A stretch of 43,284 nucleotides of DNA, from IMG/VR virus record IMGVR_UViG_3300031965_000064, positions 1 to 43,284 of that record; one strand, 5' to 3'. Under the pieces are notes generated by a model. It was not told where the DNA came from. It saw only the letters and a list, made by a program, of their open reading frames with translations, and searched no databases. Position 1 is the first letter of the stretch. Each line of letters opens with the position of its first letter. Shown here piece after piece: positions 21,188 through 26,722 of this stretch. The position numbers were made by a program, and so were the translations under genes. Source of the stretch: a virus. Its lineage: Duplodnaviria; Caudoviricetes.

Positions 21188-22633
21188 ATGAATCCCAGCC
21201 AGATCTCGATCTGGAAAGACTTCGTTGCGACGATGTACGGCGAGCCGGCAGAGCCCGCGGCGCCGGCCGCGCCGGCGGCGCCGGCGGCGTTCCGCGAAGG
21301 CGCGGGCATAACGGTGGACGTGGACGAGGACCAGTGGCGCAAACTCACCGGCGACGCGCAGCGCGATTTGACGCCGATGACGCAGTCGCGCATGCAGAAG
21401 ATCGCGCACTGGCTGTGGGAAGCGAATCTCCTCGCCAACCGCATCATCGAGCTGCCGGTCGCCTATCTCCTGGCGGAAGGCGCGAAGCTCCAGGTGAAGG
21501 ACGAGGAGAACCAGAAGGCGCTCGATCGATTCTGGCGCGATCCGATCAACGACATGGACCTGAAGCTGCCGAAGAAGGTGCGCGAGCTCGCCATCTTCGG
21601 CGAGCAGTGCTATCCCGCGTTCGTGAACGAGATGGACGGCCACGTGCGGCTCGGCTATCTCGACCCAGCCTTGATCGAGACCGTCGTGATGGACCCCGAC
21701 AACCGCGAGCAGCCGATCGGGATCGTCACGACGCGCGACAGGAAGGGCCGCGCGCGGCGCTACCGGGTGATCATCAACGGGCCTGAGGACGTCTTCACGC
21801 AGCGCACGCGCGAGATCCGGGAGTCATTCCCCGACGGCGATGCGTTCTTCTTCCGCGTGAACGATCTCTCCTCAGGCATGCGCGGGCGCTCGGATCTGCT
21901 CGCGCAAGCCGACTGGCTCGACGTCTACGATCAATTCCTGTTCGGCGAGGGAGAGCGCGCGGCCGCGCTGCGGGCGTTCTTCTGGGACGTGACGCTGAAG
22001 AACGCAACCCCCGACCAGGTCAAGGCGCGAGCGAAGGAGATCACCGCGCCGAAATCGGGCAGCGTGCGCGTGCACAACGACTCGGAGGAGTGGAAGGCGG
22101 AGGCGCCGGAGCTGCAGGGCACGGACCTCTCGGAATTCGCGCGGCTCATGCGCAATCACGTGCTCGGAGGCGCGACGCTCGCGACCAACTGGTTCGGCGG
22201 AACGGACGACGTCAATCGCGCCGGCGGCGAGAGCATGGCGGAGCCGACGTTCAAAGTGCTCTCCATGCGGCAGCGCTTCGTGAAATACATCCTCGAATCC
22301 ATCGGGCGCTACGTGCTGCTTCAGGCGGCTGGCGGGAAGGAGATCGACTGGGCGGACCCCAGGTGGGCGGTCGAAGCGGTGATGCCGGAACTCACCACGA
22401 AGGACACCACCAAGTACGCAGCCGCGCTGCAGCAAGTCGTGGTCGCGGTCGCGCTGGCGATCGAGAAGGCGTTGATGAGCGAAGCCACCGCACTCAAGCT
22501 CATCAACACGATGGCCGCACGGCTCGGCGTCGCGATCGACGCGGAGGCCGAACTCAAGGCTGCGCAGGCGGAGGCCGCGGCGCGCGCCGAGCGCGACGTC
22601 TTTACCGAGCTGCCGGCTGCCGGCGGCCAATAA
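21188..22633 (+). CDS. Portal protein
   Basis: About 480 aa directly after terL. NLLANRIIE...ELAIFGE...RGRSDL pattern. Confidence 0.8.
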   Translation: MNPSQISIWKDFVATMYGEPAEPAAPAAPAAPAAFREGAGITVDVDEDQWRKLTGDAQRDLTPMTQSRMQKIAHWLWEANLLANRIIELPVAYLLAEGAKLQVKDEENQKALDRFWRDPINDMDLKLPKKVRELAIFGEQCYPAFVNEMDGHVRLGYLDPALIETVVMDPDNREQPIGIVTTRDRKGRARRYRVIINGPEDVFTQRTREIRESFPDGDAFFFRVNDLSSGMRGRSDLLAQADWLDVYDQFLFGEGERAAALRAFFWDVTLKNATPDQVKARAKEITAPKSGSVRVHNDSEEWKAEAPELQGTDLSEFARLMRNHVLGGATLATNWFGGTDDVNRAGGESMAEPTFKVLSMRQRFVKYILESIGRYVLLQAAGGKEIDWADPRWAVEAVMPELTTKDTTKYAAALQQVVVAVALAIEKALMSEATALKLINTMAARLGVAIDAEAELKAAQAEAAARAERDVFTELPAAGGQ

Positions 22634-22650
22634 CGGAAAAGGAGACTCAC

Positions 22651-23160
22651 ATGCTGCTGAAACGCATTTACAAGAAGCCGACCGGCTGGAAGCCGGAACG
22701 CAACGTCCGTGGCGCGGACGGGAAGCTGAAGGACGCATCGCGCCCGGAGGGGGAGCTCCTCAATCCCCCGCCGATCGCTCACGTCGAGATCCGGCATACA
22801 GGCACTCACGCCGAGCAGAACTTCTCCACGAGCCTGGTGGAGGCCGCCGTCGCCGACGGCTGGATGACGCTCGGCCGTGGCAAGCTCACCGTCCACGGCA
22901 AGCCGGAGGACCTGGTCTACACGATCAAGCGCGGGCCTGGACACTACTGCTGCCACTGCGGCGAGCGCCTTCCGGATGCCGCGGCGTTCGTCGCGCCGAA
23001 GGTGACGGGAGGCATGCAGCACGTCGCCGTGGTGCACGCCGGCGAGAAATCGCCCGATCGCGGCAACCCGGCGGGTTACTGCCGTCTCAACCATTATGAG
23101 TGCGTGATCGAGGCGAAGCAGCATGAGAAGTTCAACGCGCGCGCGCAGAGGAGAGTCTGA
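22651..23160 (+). CDS. Hypothetical protein (CCHC motif)
   Basis: RBS AAGGAG. GHYCCHCGE. Confidence 0.65.
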   Translation: MLLKRIYKKPTGWKPERNVRGADGKLKDASRPEGELLNPPPIAHVEIRHTGTHAEQNFSTSLVEAAVADGWMTLGRGKLTVHGKPEDLVYTIKRGPGHYCCHCGERLPDAAAFVAPKVTGGMQHVAVVHAGEKSPDRGNPAGYCRLNHYECVIEAKQHEKFNARAQRRV

Positions 23161-23633
23161 TGGCGAACTTCGTTTTCAACGTAGCGAAAGGCCGCGTGGC
23201 GGAGCTCTACAACAGAGTCGATCTCAATGATCCCGCGGCATCCGCTCTCATCGTCGCGATCCTCGCCACCGCGGGCATCGAGTCCGACGCGACGCTGATC
23301 GACAAGGATGATCTCGCGGCGGTCGTCGCGGGCACCACCAACGAAGTGACGAACAGCGGCTACGCGCGCAAGACCCTGACCGACGCTGACATCGTCGCCT
23401 TCGCGCCGGACGACACCAACGACCGGGTGGACCTCGACATCCCGGACCAGACCTGGACCGCGGTCGCCGCGGGCGACGGCTGGAACGACTTCGTGGTGTG
23501 CTACGACAGCGACACCGGCGCCGGCACGGACGCGGCGATCGTGCCGCTCACGCTGCATGATTTTTTGGTGGTGCCCGATGGCAGCGATATAACTGCCCAG
23601 GTGGCTGCCGCAGGATTCTTCCGTGCATCCTAA
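23160..23633 (+). CDS. Virion structural protein (putative fibre base/adaptor)
   Basis: NEVTNSGYARKTL...DRVDLDIPDQTWT...PDGSDIT pattern of small virion beta-proteins that precede fibre genes. Confidence 0.65.
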   Translation: MANFVFNVAKGRVAELYNRVDLNDPAASALIVAILATAGIESDATLIDKDDLAAVVAGTTNEVTNSGYARKTLTDADIVAFAPDDTNDRVDLDIPDQTWTAVAAGDGWNDFVVCYDSDTGAGTDAAIVPLTLHDFLVVPDGSDITAQVAAAGFFRAS

Positions 23634-24114
23634 GTCCGGTGCCTGCGCCGATTGCGGCGTGCCGATTCTCAAAACATCTGCACGTTGTCGGGCGTGCAAC
23701 CTCAAGCGCGTCGGCACGCCAGGATGGAATCGTATCGGAGAAGAACCGTTTACGCGCCCCGAGCTGTCGGCGCGCTGGCGCGCTCACCACCCCGAGCGCG
23801 CAAAGCGCGTCAACATTGCCGCCAAGCAGACTATGCGCTCGCGCGTTGCCGCCTACAAAGCAGAGCGCGGTTGCAAAGACTGCGGCACTACCGACCCGCG
23901 CGTGCTCGATCTGCACCACCACAACGGCGAGGACAAGATCATGGCCGTGAGCCAGATGATGTATCGGTACAGTTGGAAGAAAGTGAAGGCCGAGATGGAC
24001 AAATGCCGCGTGCTTTGCGCGAATTGTCACCGGATTGAACACGCCGAAGAGGCAGACCGCGCGCCCGACATCACCGCGCAGATCGCGGCGGCGGGGTTCT
24101 TCCGGGCGAGCTAG
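23623..24114 (+). CDS. HNH homing endonuclease fused to the displaced 3' end of the upstream gene
   Basis: CKDCG...LDLHH...CRVLCANCHRIEH. Ends DITAQIAAAGFFRAS, a copy of the upstream gene C-terminus. Confidence 0.88.
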   Translation: MHPKSGACADCGVPILKTSARCRACNLKRVGTPGWNRIGEEPFTRPELSARWRAHHPERAKRVNIAAKQTMRSRVAAYKAERGCKDCGTTDPRVLDLHHHNGEDKIMAVSQMMYRYSWKKVKAEMDKCRVLCANCHRIEHAEEADRAPDITAQIAAAGFFRAS

Positions 24115-24155
24115 TAAGGGCGCTGCTTGAATCGTGCTGATGGGATAGTCGTCCC

Positions 24156-26411
24156 ATGACCATCTCCGTCGTCAATGCCTCGGCCGACCAGACGCTCGAC
24201 CAGACGACCAACACGCTCGTCAACTCGATGACGATCACCCCCGGGGCGGGTGATTATCTGGCTGTGTTCACGGGCTACTTCGAGAATGGGGCGACTGCCA
24301 AGACCTACGAGTTCTCGGTCTTCGTCGGCGGCTCTATCGTTCAGCACACCGAGCGGCGGATCGACATCGAGGGATCAATCGCCGCCGCGTCAGTGTTCAC
24401 CGTGGTCACTGTCGCCGCACAGGTCACGCCGACCGCGGGTCAGGCGGTCGAGGTTCGCTACCGGCGCACGACCGGCACGACCGCTTCGACGATGAAGCGC
24501 CGGACGCTGACGCTCTTCCCGAAGGCGTCCGCGGACTTCCAGCAGGATAACTCCACGGCGGACCAGACGATCAGCTCCGGCACGTACACGCTGCTGACCG
24601 GCGCGGACCTGACACCAGGAGCGGGAACTTACTTGCTGCTCTTCAGCGCGAGTGCGACCAATTCATCGACTGGCGCCACGACGAACAACATCTACTACTC
24701 GGTCTTCGTCAACGGTGTGCAGGTCGCTCACACCGAGCGGATTCTCAACGCCGAGGCCTCCATCAGCGCCAATCTTGGAGCCATGACAGGACTCATCGCC
24801 TGCAAGGTCACTCCCACCGCAGGGCAAGTCGTGGACGTTCGTGCGAAGCGGGATGGCACGACGAACTGGGTCGTGCATGAGCGAACGCTCACGCTTATGA
24901 AGGTCGCCGATGCCGACATCAAGGAGGCGACGCAGACGGCAGACGAGGCCGATACCGGGACGACGGACGAGCTGTTGGTAGGCATGACCATCACTGATCC
25001 TGGAGTGGCCGACTGGCTCGCGATCTTCAGCACCAGTCAGGGCTACGGAACGATCAGCGTGAACCAATCCGCGACGTTCTCGCTCTACAACGCGGGTGTC
25101 GCGGACCTCAACACCCTGCGTGTTCAGTCGCAGGAGTCTTCGATCGACAATGGGAACTACTACGGCTTCACCCACGGCAAGCTGACCGTCGCGGGCGGAA
25201 CGGACGATGTGACGCTGCGCTGGAAGGGCTCCAGCGCAACAAGCCGCACGGCGCACGAGCGCACGTTGGTGATGGTGAAGGAGGCGGGCGGCCAGACGAT
25301 TGCCGTGGGCCAGGTGACCGAAACCGATCTCGCCCAGGCGCTCGCGTGGGCGCCCAAGGCGCGGCTCATCGGGCAGGTGAGCGAGACTGACATCGCGCAG
25401 GCGCTGAGCGCCCGCAAGACGCTCGGTGTTGCGCAGGTTAGCGAGGCCGATCTCGCTCAATCGATCACCGCGCCGCGCATCATCGCTGTCGGGCAAACCG
25501 CGGAGACCGATCTCGCCCAGGCGCTCGCATGGGCGCCGAAGGCGCGGCTCGTTGCGCAGGCGACGGAGACCGACGTCGCGCAGCTGCTGACGACCCGCAA
25601 GACAACGGCGATCGCGCAGGCGCTGGAAACCGACAACGCCCAGGCGCTGAGCTCGAGGAAGAGCGTGACGGTGGCGCAGGCGCTCGAGACGGATCTCTCG
25701 CAGGCGATCGGGCGCGCGAAGGCGAAGGCGATCACGCAAGCCGCGGAGATAGATCTCGCGCAGGCGATGACGAGCGCCAAGGCGAAGGCGATCGGTCAGG
25801 CGCAGGAGACCGACCTCGCGCAGCCGGTCACCGCCGGCGGCGTGCACGTTGTTGCGGTCAACCAGGTGGCGGAGACCGACACGGCGCAGCCGATTGCCTG
25901 GGCGCCGAAAGCGCGGCTCGTCGCCCAGGCAGGCGAGGCCGACGTCGCGCAGGCGGTGAGCTCCGCGAAGACAAAGGGCATCGGCCTGGTGCTCGAGATC
26001 GACACCGCGCAGTCGGTCACGCGGGTCAAGACACGGACGATAGGGCAGGCCGCGGAGAGCGACGTCGCGCAGCTCGTCGCCCATCTGAAGTCGCGCACGG
26101 TCGGCCAGGCGCTTGAGACCGATCTCGCGCAGCTCGTCGCGCATCTCAAGACGCGCGCGGTCGGCCAGGCGCTGGAGACGGACTTCGCGCAGTCCATCAC
26201 GCCCTTCCTCGGCGCCCTGGATCTCATCTTCAACATCGTCGAGCGCATCGCGCTCTTCCAACTCCAGTTGTCCGAGACGGCGCGCATGGCGCTGCTGCGC
26301 GACCACGAAGAGCACTTCGCTGGGGAGCGCGACCATGAAGGGCGATTCGCCGGGACCCGTGATGAGGACGGGCGGTTCACCGTAACCCGTGACGAGGAAG
26401 CGAGGTTCTGA
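24156..26411 (+). CDS. Putative head fibre/spike: three beta-sandwich repeats plus 15 x ~20-aa repeats
   Basis: Three ~125-aa T.GAG.YL..F...HTER units, then 15 Q..E.D.AQ repeats and four RD.E..F repeats. Confidence 0.6.
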   Translation: MTISVVNASADQTLDQTTNTLVNSMTITPGAGDYLAVFTGYFENGATAKTYEFSVFVGGSIVQHTERRIDIEGSIAAASVFTVVTVAAQVTPTAGQAVEVRYRRTTGTTASTMKRRTLTLFPKASADFQQDNSTADQTISSGTYTLLTGADLTPGAGTYLLLFSASATNSSTGATTNNIYYSVFVNGVQVAHTERILNAEASISANLGAMTGLIACKVTPTAGQVVDVRAKRDGTTNWVVHERTLTLMKVADADIKEATQTADEADTGTTDELLVGMTITDPGVADWLAIFSTSQGYGTISVNQSATFSLYNAGVADLNTLRVQSQESSIDNGNYYGFTHGKLTVAGGTDDVTLRWKGSSATSRTAHERTLVMVKEAGGQTIAVGQVTETDLAQALAWAPKARLIGQVSETDIAQALSARKTLGVAQVSEADLAQSITAPRIIAVGQTAETDLAQALAWAPKARLVAQATETDVAQLLTTRKTTAIAQALETDNAQALSSRKSVTVAQALETDLSQAIGRAKAKAITQAAEIDLAQAMTSAKAKAIGQAQETDLAQPVTAGGVHVVAVNQVAETDTAQPIAWAPKARLVAQAGEADVAQAVSSAKTKGIGLVLEIDTAQSVTRVKTRTIGQAAESDVAQLVAHLKSRTVGQALETDLAQLVAHLKTRAVGQALETDFAQSITPFLGALDLIFNIVERIALFQLQLSETARMALLRDHEEHFAGERDHEGRFAGTRDEDGRFTVTRDEEARF

Positions 26412-26722
26412 TGCCCTACAAGCTCTCCCAGGGCGACACCGGGTCGAAGATCCGGGCCACCTGCAAGAACGACAGCGACGGCTCACTCATCGACCTGACC
26501 GGCGCGACGGTGCACCTGCTCTGGCGCGATGGTGCGGGCGCCCTGGTGACGAAGACCATGACCATCGTCGGGGCGCCGACCGCGGGCGTCGCCGAGTACC
26601 TTTTCGCGGCGGCGGAGATCTTCCCGCCACAGATGAGCTTTCGCGTCCGGATCACCGATGCCGGCGGCAAGATCACGCACAACCTCGACGCGCTGGTCGA
26701 ATCCGTGATCTCCGCCCCGTGA
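26411..26722 (+). CDS. BppU-N-like fibre attachment protein
   Basis: QGDTG..I...DG..IDLTGATV...G..EY pattern. Confidence 0.65.
   Translation: MPYKLSQGDTGSKIRATCKNDSDGSLIDLTGATVHLLWRDGAGALVTKTMTIVGAPTAGVAEYLFAAAEIFPPQMSFRVRITDAGGKITHNLDALVESVISAP

Follow-up and report, generated by a model that had tools for sequence, protein, structure and literature searches.

Gene order and features of the locus

The DNA analysed here, a virus record of 43,284 bases (the window) with a completeness of about 98%, is that of a Mu-like transposable phage, in which transposase, Gam, repressor, Mu Gp27, terminase, portal, Mu F and protease-capsid genes were detected. Downstream of the portal gene the order is a 169-aa gene, a 157-aa gene that we call the host gene (23160-23633), an HNH gene (23623-24114) and a 751-aa gene (Table 1). 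The 169-aa gene, the host gene, the 751-aa gene and a 103-aa gene with a weak BppU_N match make up a tail/fibre-like block (22651-26722) placed between portal and Mu F, within the head module. The 751-aa gene is possibly fibre-like, and the 169-aa gene also lies 5' of the host gene in contigs L042 and L081.

Table 1. Positions of the genes and of the proposed parts of the element in the window
Feature	Position	Strand	Basis or remark
169-aa gene	22651-23160		Directly 5' of host gene
Host gene, 157 aa, phrog_26662	23160..23633	+	PHROG E 4.6e-36
Presumed foreign replacement 3' end, 26 codons, functional end of host gene	23556..23633	+	Change point at 23556
Candidate cut/insertion site, in the empty allele (P-D-G-S-D-I codons)	23574..23591	+	Inferred
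Putative Shine-Dalgarno AGGA and GTG start of HNH, inside replacement tail	23612..23625	+	Sequence
HNH endonuclease body	23623..24066	+	N-terminal CxxC-CxxC, then CxxC, DLHH, CANCHRxxH
Presumed displaced native 3' end, 15 codons and stop, in-frame HNH C-terminus	24067..24114	+	Third positions, nearest alleles, X3/X5 contigs
751-aa gene, repeat-rich	24156..26411	+	ORF list; phrog_14065, function unassigned; right flank, outside element

PDB sequence searches gave no significant match. A Pfam scan of the host protein gave no match; the Atlas lead for it scored 0.87, with PF23140 (Gp80-like tail-fibre/tail-tip protein) on 23% of the members there. In a fold search its structural model (pLDDT 90.8) resembled tail, baseplate and fibre chains with Z values of 7.8-10.0, namely a Klebsiella phage baseplate chain (Z 10.0), the Bxb1 tail-tip chain 9d93_Ra (Z 9.0, rmsd 2.2, 101 aligned, model range 35-156) and the GP4 fibre I entry 8jou_a (Z 7.8). 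Homologues of the host gene adjoin baseplate or minor-tail genes in Pam4 and Hiyaa, the homologue in the Streptomyces phage Hiyaa standing before a minor tail protein. The host gene product is predicted to be a tail-tip- or fibre-adaptor-like virion protein, possibly with a Gp80-like fold. The last strands of the model (residues 144-146 and 154-156) lie inside the duplicated part described below, so the protein probably needs its end.

The HNH gene product matched PHROGs 3106 (E 1.1e-24) and 2255 (E 6.2e-24) and the Atlas HNH clusters (score 0.95), and was without a match in Pfam and NCBIfam at E<=0.1. It retains the residues that are invariant in alignment A1 (27 sequences), and D96, H98, H99, C132, N134, C135, H136 and H140, which we take to be the catalytic and metal-binding residues, are all present. 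Judged by its sequence, the gene encodes an HNH endonuclease with intact catalytic and zinc motifs.

A gene end present in two copies

The host gene ends by encoding DITAQVAAAGFFRAS and a stop (23586-23633), and the HNH gene ends by encoding DITAQIAAAGFFRAS and a stop (24067-24114). The two copies agree in 14 of 15 residues, 33 of 48 nt and 3 of 16 codons, and A/T third positions number nine in the upstream copy and none in the downstream copy; the residue, codon and third-position counts of the initial annotation were thus all reproduced. Unusual codon use begins before the repeat. The best change point is at codon 133 (23556): A/T makes up 1 of 70 third positions ahead of this point and 12 of 25 beyond it, a departure from the gene body with a Fisher p=3.4e-5. 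The downstream copy, with G/C at 15 of 15 third positions, is like the host gene body in codon use (p=0.36). When L081 was compared with the HNH-free allele L304, the first clustered differences likewise started 26 codons from the end.

Two controls were run. In 11 other genes of the window, 67-96% of the third positions in the last 26 codons were G/C, against 52% at the host gene end. In 156 of 162 HNH-bearing loci scored, at most 5 of the 12 terminal residues matched any upstream stop-proximal peptide; the six rows with at least 8 of 12 matches came from the window (twice), L081 (twice), L162 and L163.

In the window, AGGA (23612-23615) lies 7 nt 5' of the GTG at 23623, and this GTG falls within the host Arg-Ala-Ser-stop codons. 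The suggestion that the upstream copy supplies both signals to the HNH gene fits the window. Such an overlapping start is common and is one variant among the carriers: the HNH genes of L042, L081 and L379 have an ATG of their own 3' of the host stop. The Arg codon CGT occupies the start-overlap place in four of the six carriers, as against 8 of 185 empty alleles, and the N-termini of proteins P0002, P0003, P0005, P0050, P0187 and P0195 are compatible with a window-type overlap. No sigma-70-type promoter was found in the region scanned, the one terminator-like site, on the minus strand, is at chance level, and the RNA fold at either tail is not unusual (z -0.87 and 0.80). No RNA datasets with the sequence were listed, which has no bearing on expression.

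Carriers and empty alleles

If the arrangement in the window is not singular, other HNH genes should end in a copy of the C-terminus of the gene upstream, and a search for such genes, proposed in the initial annotation, was positive. The host-gene tail forms the C-terminal end of 26 of 233 collected proteins, for most of which DNA context is lacking, and six carrier contigs are known. Among 40 HNH homologues it ends 19 of the 26 close ones (the window protein included) and none of the 14 distant ones. Five carrier contigs with DNA besides the window (L042, L081, L162, L163 and L379) have the HNH gene 3' of the same host gene; the duplicated end flanks the HNH ORF in the window, L081, L162, L163 and L379 and is decayed in L042. 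The HNH tail copies the local host end, with GVNGIFRAQ against GVNGTFRAQ in L081 and TTGVFFRAS against TTGTFFRAS in L162. For the HNH protein of L081 the identity figure used is 56%.

The 201 unique host 3' ends that were collected include these six carriers and 185 empty alleles whose flank measures 500 nt or more; the other 10 had short flanks and were left out. The share of carriers is low, at 6 of the 191 alleles scored. All carriers have a single insertion point, in hosts that are 43-79% identical and whose G/C third-position contents run from 0.22 to 1.0. In a quick tree of the host body (95 rows, 132 columns; without L379 and without L163, which is a fragment) the four carriers correspond to four changes, at least three of them forced by strongly supported branches, with gains and losses not distinguishable. 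The tree indicates that a single inherited gain does not explain the distribution, with which repeated loss is compatible.

Generic HNH patterns from alignment A1 recovered the window HNH family in none of 80 viral and 2 of 80 metagenome matches listed, the rest being mostly unrelated HNH loci. A stricter DNA pattern gave three viral stretches (one of them L081, the other two without the host gene) and none in prokaryote genomes. None of 40 host-gene loci of GTDB genomes contained an HNH gene, no close viral contig was found for the L162 HNH gene, and the HNH subfamily was absent from the cultured phages searched, where the best matches were below 60% identity; the host gene is present in six cultured-phage records. 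Two short contigs of sequencing run X3, matched to window positions 23986-24112, have a related HNH 3' end that runs into the tail, and these are further carriers in an independent sediment run. The HNH proteins of L163 (108-659), P0026, P0042 and P0050 have the same tail and a different N-terminal zinc-finger region, which suggests a swapped DNA-binding module at the common insertion site.

Native and foreign copies

The initial annotation took the downstream copy for the displaced native end and predicted that HNH-free alleles would match it. The prediction held in a near-identical pair: the gene bodies of L304, which is HNH-free, and L081, which has the HNH gene, are identical at 184 of 189 and 207 of 210 nt, and the last 42 nt of L304 agree with the downstream copy of L081 at 40 positions and with the upstream copy at 32. 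The names of the two contigs have a dataset number in common, and their next genes differ. For the window the nearest HNH-free allele found has 81% DNA identity. Among the 20 nearest empty alleles, picked from 41 equal-length alleles among 91, the downstream copy is the closer one for 17 and the upstream copy for 2. The Ile of the downstream copy is found in 75 of the 91 alleles and the Val of the upstream copy in 6. Contigs of runs X3 and X5, distant relatives at a depth of 2-3, join the host body directly to 24067. In the L162 subfamily, 23 of 37 alleles resemble the downstream copy more and 12 the upstream copy, the best allele matching them at 45 and 37 of 48 nt, respectively, and body identity correlates to the same degree with each copy (rho 0.63 and 0.64). 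When L162 was compared with alleles from outside its subfamily, whose tails are two codons out of register, the upstream copy came out ahead by 59 to 20; rows of L162 and L163 beyond 23597 in that profile, also out of register, were excluded.

Codon use gave a second line of evidence. The upstream copy departs from the codon use of the gene body in the window, L081, L162 and L163 (p 3e-5 to 0.01) and not significantly in L042 (p=0.22). In L379 the codon-use counts point the same way, with 14 of 23 in the upstream end, against 118 of 125 in the body, and 14 of 14 downstream. The foreign character ascribed to the upstream copy is thereby borne out in five of the six carriers. The downstream copy did not depart from body codon use in any of the five carriers tested. 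Because the shift in the A+T-rich L081 goes towards G/C, it is not plain A/T drift. Composition alone partly favours the G/C-rich downstream copy among G/C-rich alleles. In sum, the comparisons of alleles and codons argue that the downstream copy is native and the upstream copy foreign, the case being weaker for the window itself.

The replacement end had been pictured as a recoded one. A foreign upstream end is indeed present, and it is not one fixed cassette: the upstream copies of L162 and L379 agree at 34 of 48 nt and the downstream copies at 44 of 48. Since the upstream copies have the amino-acid type of the local host subfamily, yet are mutually unlike between carriers, the element must re-acquire or co-evolve its tail. 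Of the HNH-free alleles, L004 (3394-3474) comes closest in its final 78 nt to the foreign tail of the window (85%), with the Leu and Val of that tail, although the L004 gene body is only 13th of 41 in likeness to the window; L004 may represent a donor lineage, or it may retain the remnant of an element since lost. In the HNH-free, G/C-rich alleles L029, L047 and L255 the G/C third positions of the last 26 codons fall from 0.94 to 0.72, from 0.89 to 0.68 and from 0.93 to 0.76, drops that are possibly traces of past invasion.

Proposed mode of homing

The element is probably a free-standing homing endonuclease with gene-end replacement, copied into HNH-free alleles by recombination. It shows every property of a free-standing homing endonuclease that can be read from sequence. 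The gene is optional at one fixed site, given the six carriers, the 185 empty alleles and the near-identical empty L304, and placement in an intron or intein is not indicated, the ORF filling the insert, the host frame being whole and an Rfam match being absent.

A cut near the invariant Gly141 is proposed because none of the 26 tailed HNH proteins keeps native tail sequence to the left of this residue and four of them begin at it; the foreign stretch starts some eight codons to the left of it. None of the six upstream copies uses the most frequent Pro and Ile codons at the proposed site (matched probabilities ~0.002 and ~0.003), a weak signal that is a lead only, 13 codons having been tested post hoc. 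The HNH enzyme would nick or cut the empty allele around the P-D-G-S-D-I codons. During repair, the left homology arm would be the gene body and the right one the native tail, and the recipient would gain the donor's end of about 26 codons together with the HNH gene and lose some 8-10 native codons left of the cut. The host protein would remain whole, which would matter because its last strands belong to the fold. The filled allele would then escape cutting, its upstream copy having diverged and its downstream copy being without the left half of the site. Having no stop of its own, the HNH gene would end at the native stop and so likely leave the next gene's translation context as it was. Immunity by recoding is weakened as an explanation by the tolerance that homing endonucleases often have for third-position changes; the splitting of the site could matter as much. 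The wider proposition, that this HNH family homes, in many phage lineages and without an intron, into the 3' end of a single virion gene, bringing a cleavage-resistant end, borrowing start and stop and so entering a packed operon with both neighbours left undisturbed, has in our estimate an even chance of being correct.

The initial annotation also had the HNH protein using the displaced native tail as its own C-terminus. The HNH frame does run into that tail, and the tail has the look of a by-product. A deletion in L042 (3908-3961) breaks the downstream copy, leaving its first seven codons in frame and remnants of the last codons and the stop out of frame, and the HNH core of L042 is intact. 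The full host tail is missing, being incomplete or absent, from 7 of the 26 close HNH homologues. Because of the L042 frameshift and these seven homologues the fused tail looks dispensable, and most likely the peptide is a passenger on the nuclease. That the tail is usually in frame would be accounted for best if the HNH gene makes use of the native stop.

Alternative explanations

The same history might have been produced by an element that is immobile, or never mobilised itself, through one or a few illegitimate recombinations followed by ordinary module exchange, in which case the diverged tail gives no immunity. We consider this unlikely. Such an element might be expected to be as rare as the carriers are, to have a decayed tail in L042 and to have upstream tails that vary freely between carriers, all of which is seen. 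It accounts poorly for one insertion point in hosts of such varied identity and composition and for motifs invariant in 27 sequences; further, the downstream copies are still near-perfect native ends (40 of 42 nt in the pair above), which suggests recent renewal.

Somewhat less probable than an immobile element is a captured tail with a job on the nuclease, such as docking to the virion or to a host-protein partner, for which the in-frame fusion was selected. The 19 of 26 close homologues that are in frame to the host stop, though the segment past the last CxNCH varies from 15 to 28 residues, fit a tail of this kind, but selection for a nearby stop accounts for the frame equally. Against it are the frameshifted tail beside an intact core in L042, the lack of a full tail in the seven close homologues and also in P0187 and P0195, and a retained length that ranges from 5-7 to ~17 residues. 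In the host model, moreover, the tail residues are strands within a sandwich fold.

It is very improbable that the upstream copy is the native end, changed by drift, and that the downstream copy came with the HNH gene as a target-like duplication. Drift would agree with the likeness of HNH-free L004 to the window's upstream copy (85% over 78 nt) and with upstream tails of the local host's amino-acid type. For L081 it is contradicted by the near-identical empty L304, which matches the downstream copy; the downstream copy fits host codon use in five of five carriers tested and in L379, and the L004 body stands no higher than 13th of 41. We give just as little credence to a self-splicing intron whose second exon would be the downstream copy, or to an HNH protein that is an accessory nuclease of DNA packaging. 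HNH genes are known in phage introns and as packaging aides (available text of PMC12724721), and the gene lies within the head-gene region. Against these readings, the ORF takes up the 481-nt spacing, the host gene already has a complete frame, an Rfam scan of 22500-25000 gave no match at E<=1, 185 alleles are without HNH, and the HNH gene is two genes past the portal gene and does not adjoin terminase.

Relation to known elements

The closest likeness to the layout in the window is found in fungal mitochondria. In Glomus and Allomyces, according to the available text of PMC3630166, the same order of parts occurs with LAGLIDADG or GIY-YIG enzymes, and mobility was shown biochemically; the cases are atp6 of Allomyces macrogynus and atp6, atp9, cox2 and nad3 of Glomus. 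These mobile ORFs have, like the window, a gene body, a foreign end with synonymous divergence, an endonuclease ORF and a displaced native end, without an intron, and the native end matches element-free relatives (PMC3630166, same text). The window differs in being from a bacteriophage, in its zinc-binding HNH enzyme, and in ends, 26 and 15 codons, that are much shorter than the fungal ones. Its HNH gene reads into the native end and uses the native stop, whereas the Glomus ORF comes after the inserted end or forms a fusion with it (as far as the text of PMC3630166 available goes). By analogy, the window element appears to work like the fungal mobile ORFs and is not one of them, since neither the mitochondrial location nor the enzyme class applies.

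In phage T4, the accessible text of PMC2988022 describes free-standing endonucleases that are intergenic, cut far from their own genes, or split genes. The seg and mob genes of T4-like phages, to which 'intronless homing' is attributed, resemble the window HNH gene in having no promoter, a start that overlaps the upstream gene, a patchy distribution and the HNH class; they differ in lying between genes and in cutting at a distance of hundreds to thousands of bases (PMC2988022 and PMC2993671, as far as available). The window HNH gene is within coding sequence, and its cut would be at the insertion point. Aeh1 mobE in nrdA and T4 mobA are also HNH genes in a phage coding region without an intron, but their hosts are made as two polypeptides (PMC2988022, available text); the window host is one chain by way of the replacement end. 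The letters 'duplicat' occur in neither PMC2988022 nor PMC2993671, and no gene-end replacement in a phage is mentioned in the accessible parts of PMC2988022, PMC2993671, PMC10448857, PMC12724721 and PMC7487136. A phage report of it was not found in the literature searched, which covered few subscription journals.

Descriptions of phage homing endonucleases place them in an intron or intein, in the space between genes, or within a gene that they split into pieces; the HNH family would add a fourth place, a coding end repaired by a replacement copy. It suggests, in a form open to experiment, how an endonuclease without an intron may occupy its own target and yet spare its own locus, and L304 and L081, ~97-98% identical in the gene body, are a natural empty and filled pair. 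If the reading is true, gene-end replacement would be a third, so far unpublished, homing route in phages, for which a target is mapped and this pair supplies naturally susceptible and resistant alleles. As the principle is already known in fungal mitochondria, the surprise is moderate. Ends of virion genes that selfish nucleases could swap between lineages would bear on gene trees and annotation.

A distant paralogue of the host gene lies upstream in L077 (1645-1914). In L043, a second copy of the first 16 codons of the host gene is found upstream (2288-2335), and this could be the mirror-image event at the 5' end.
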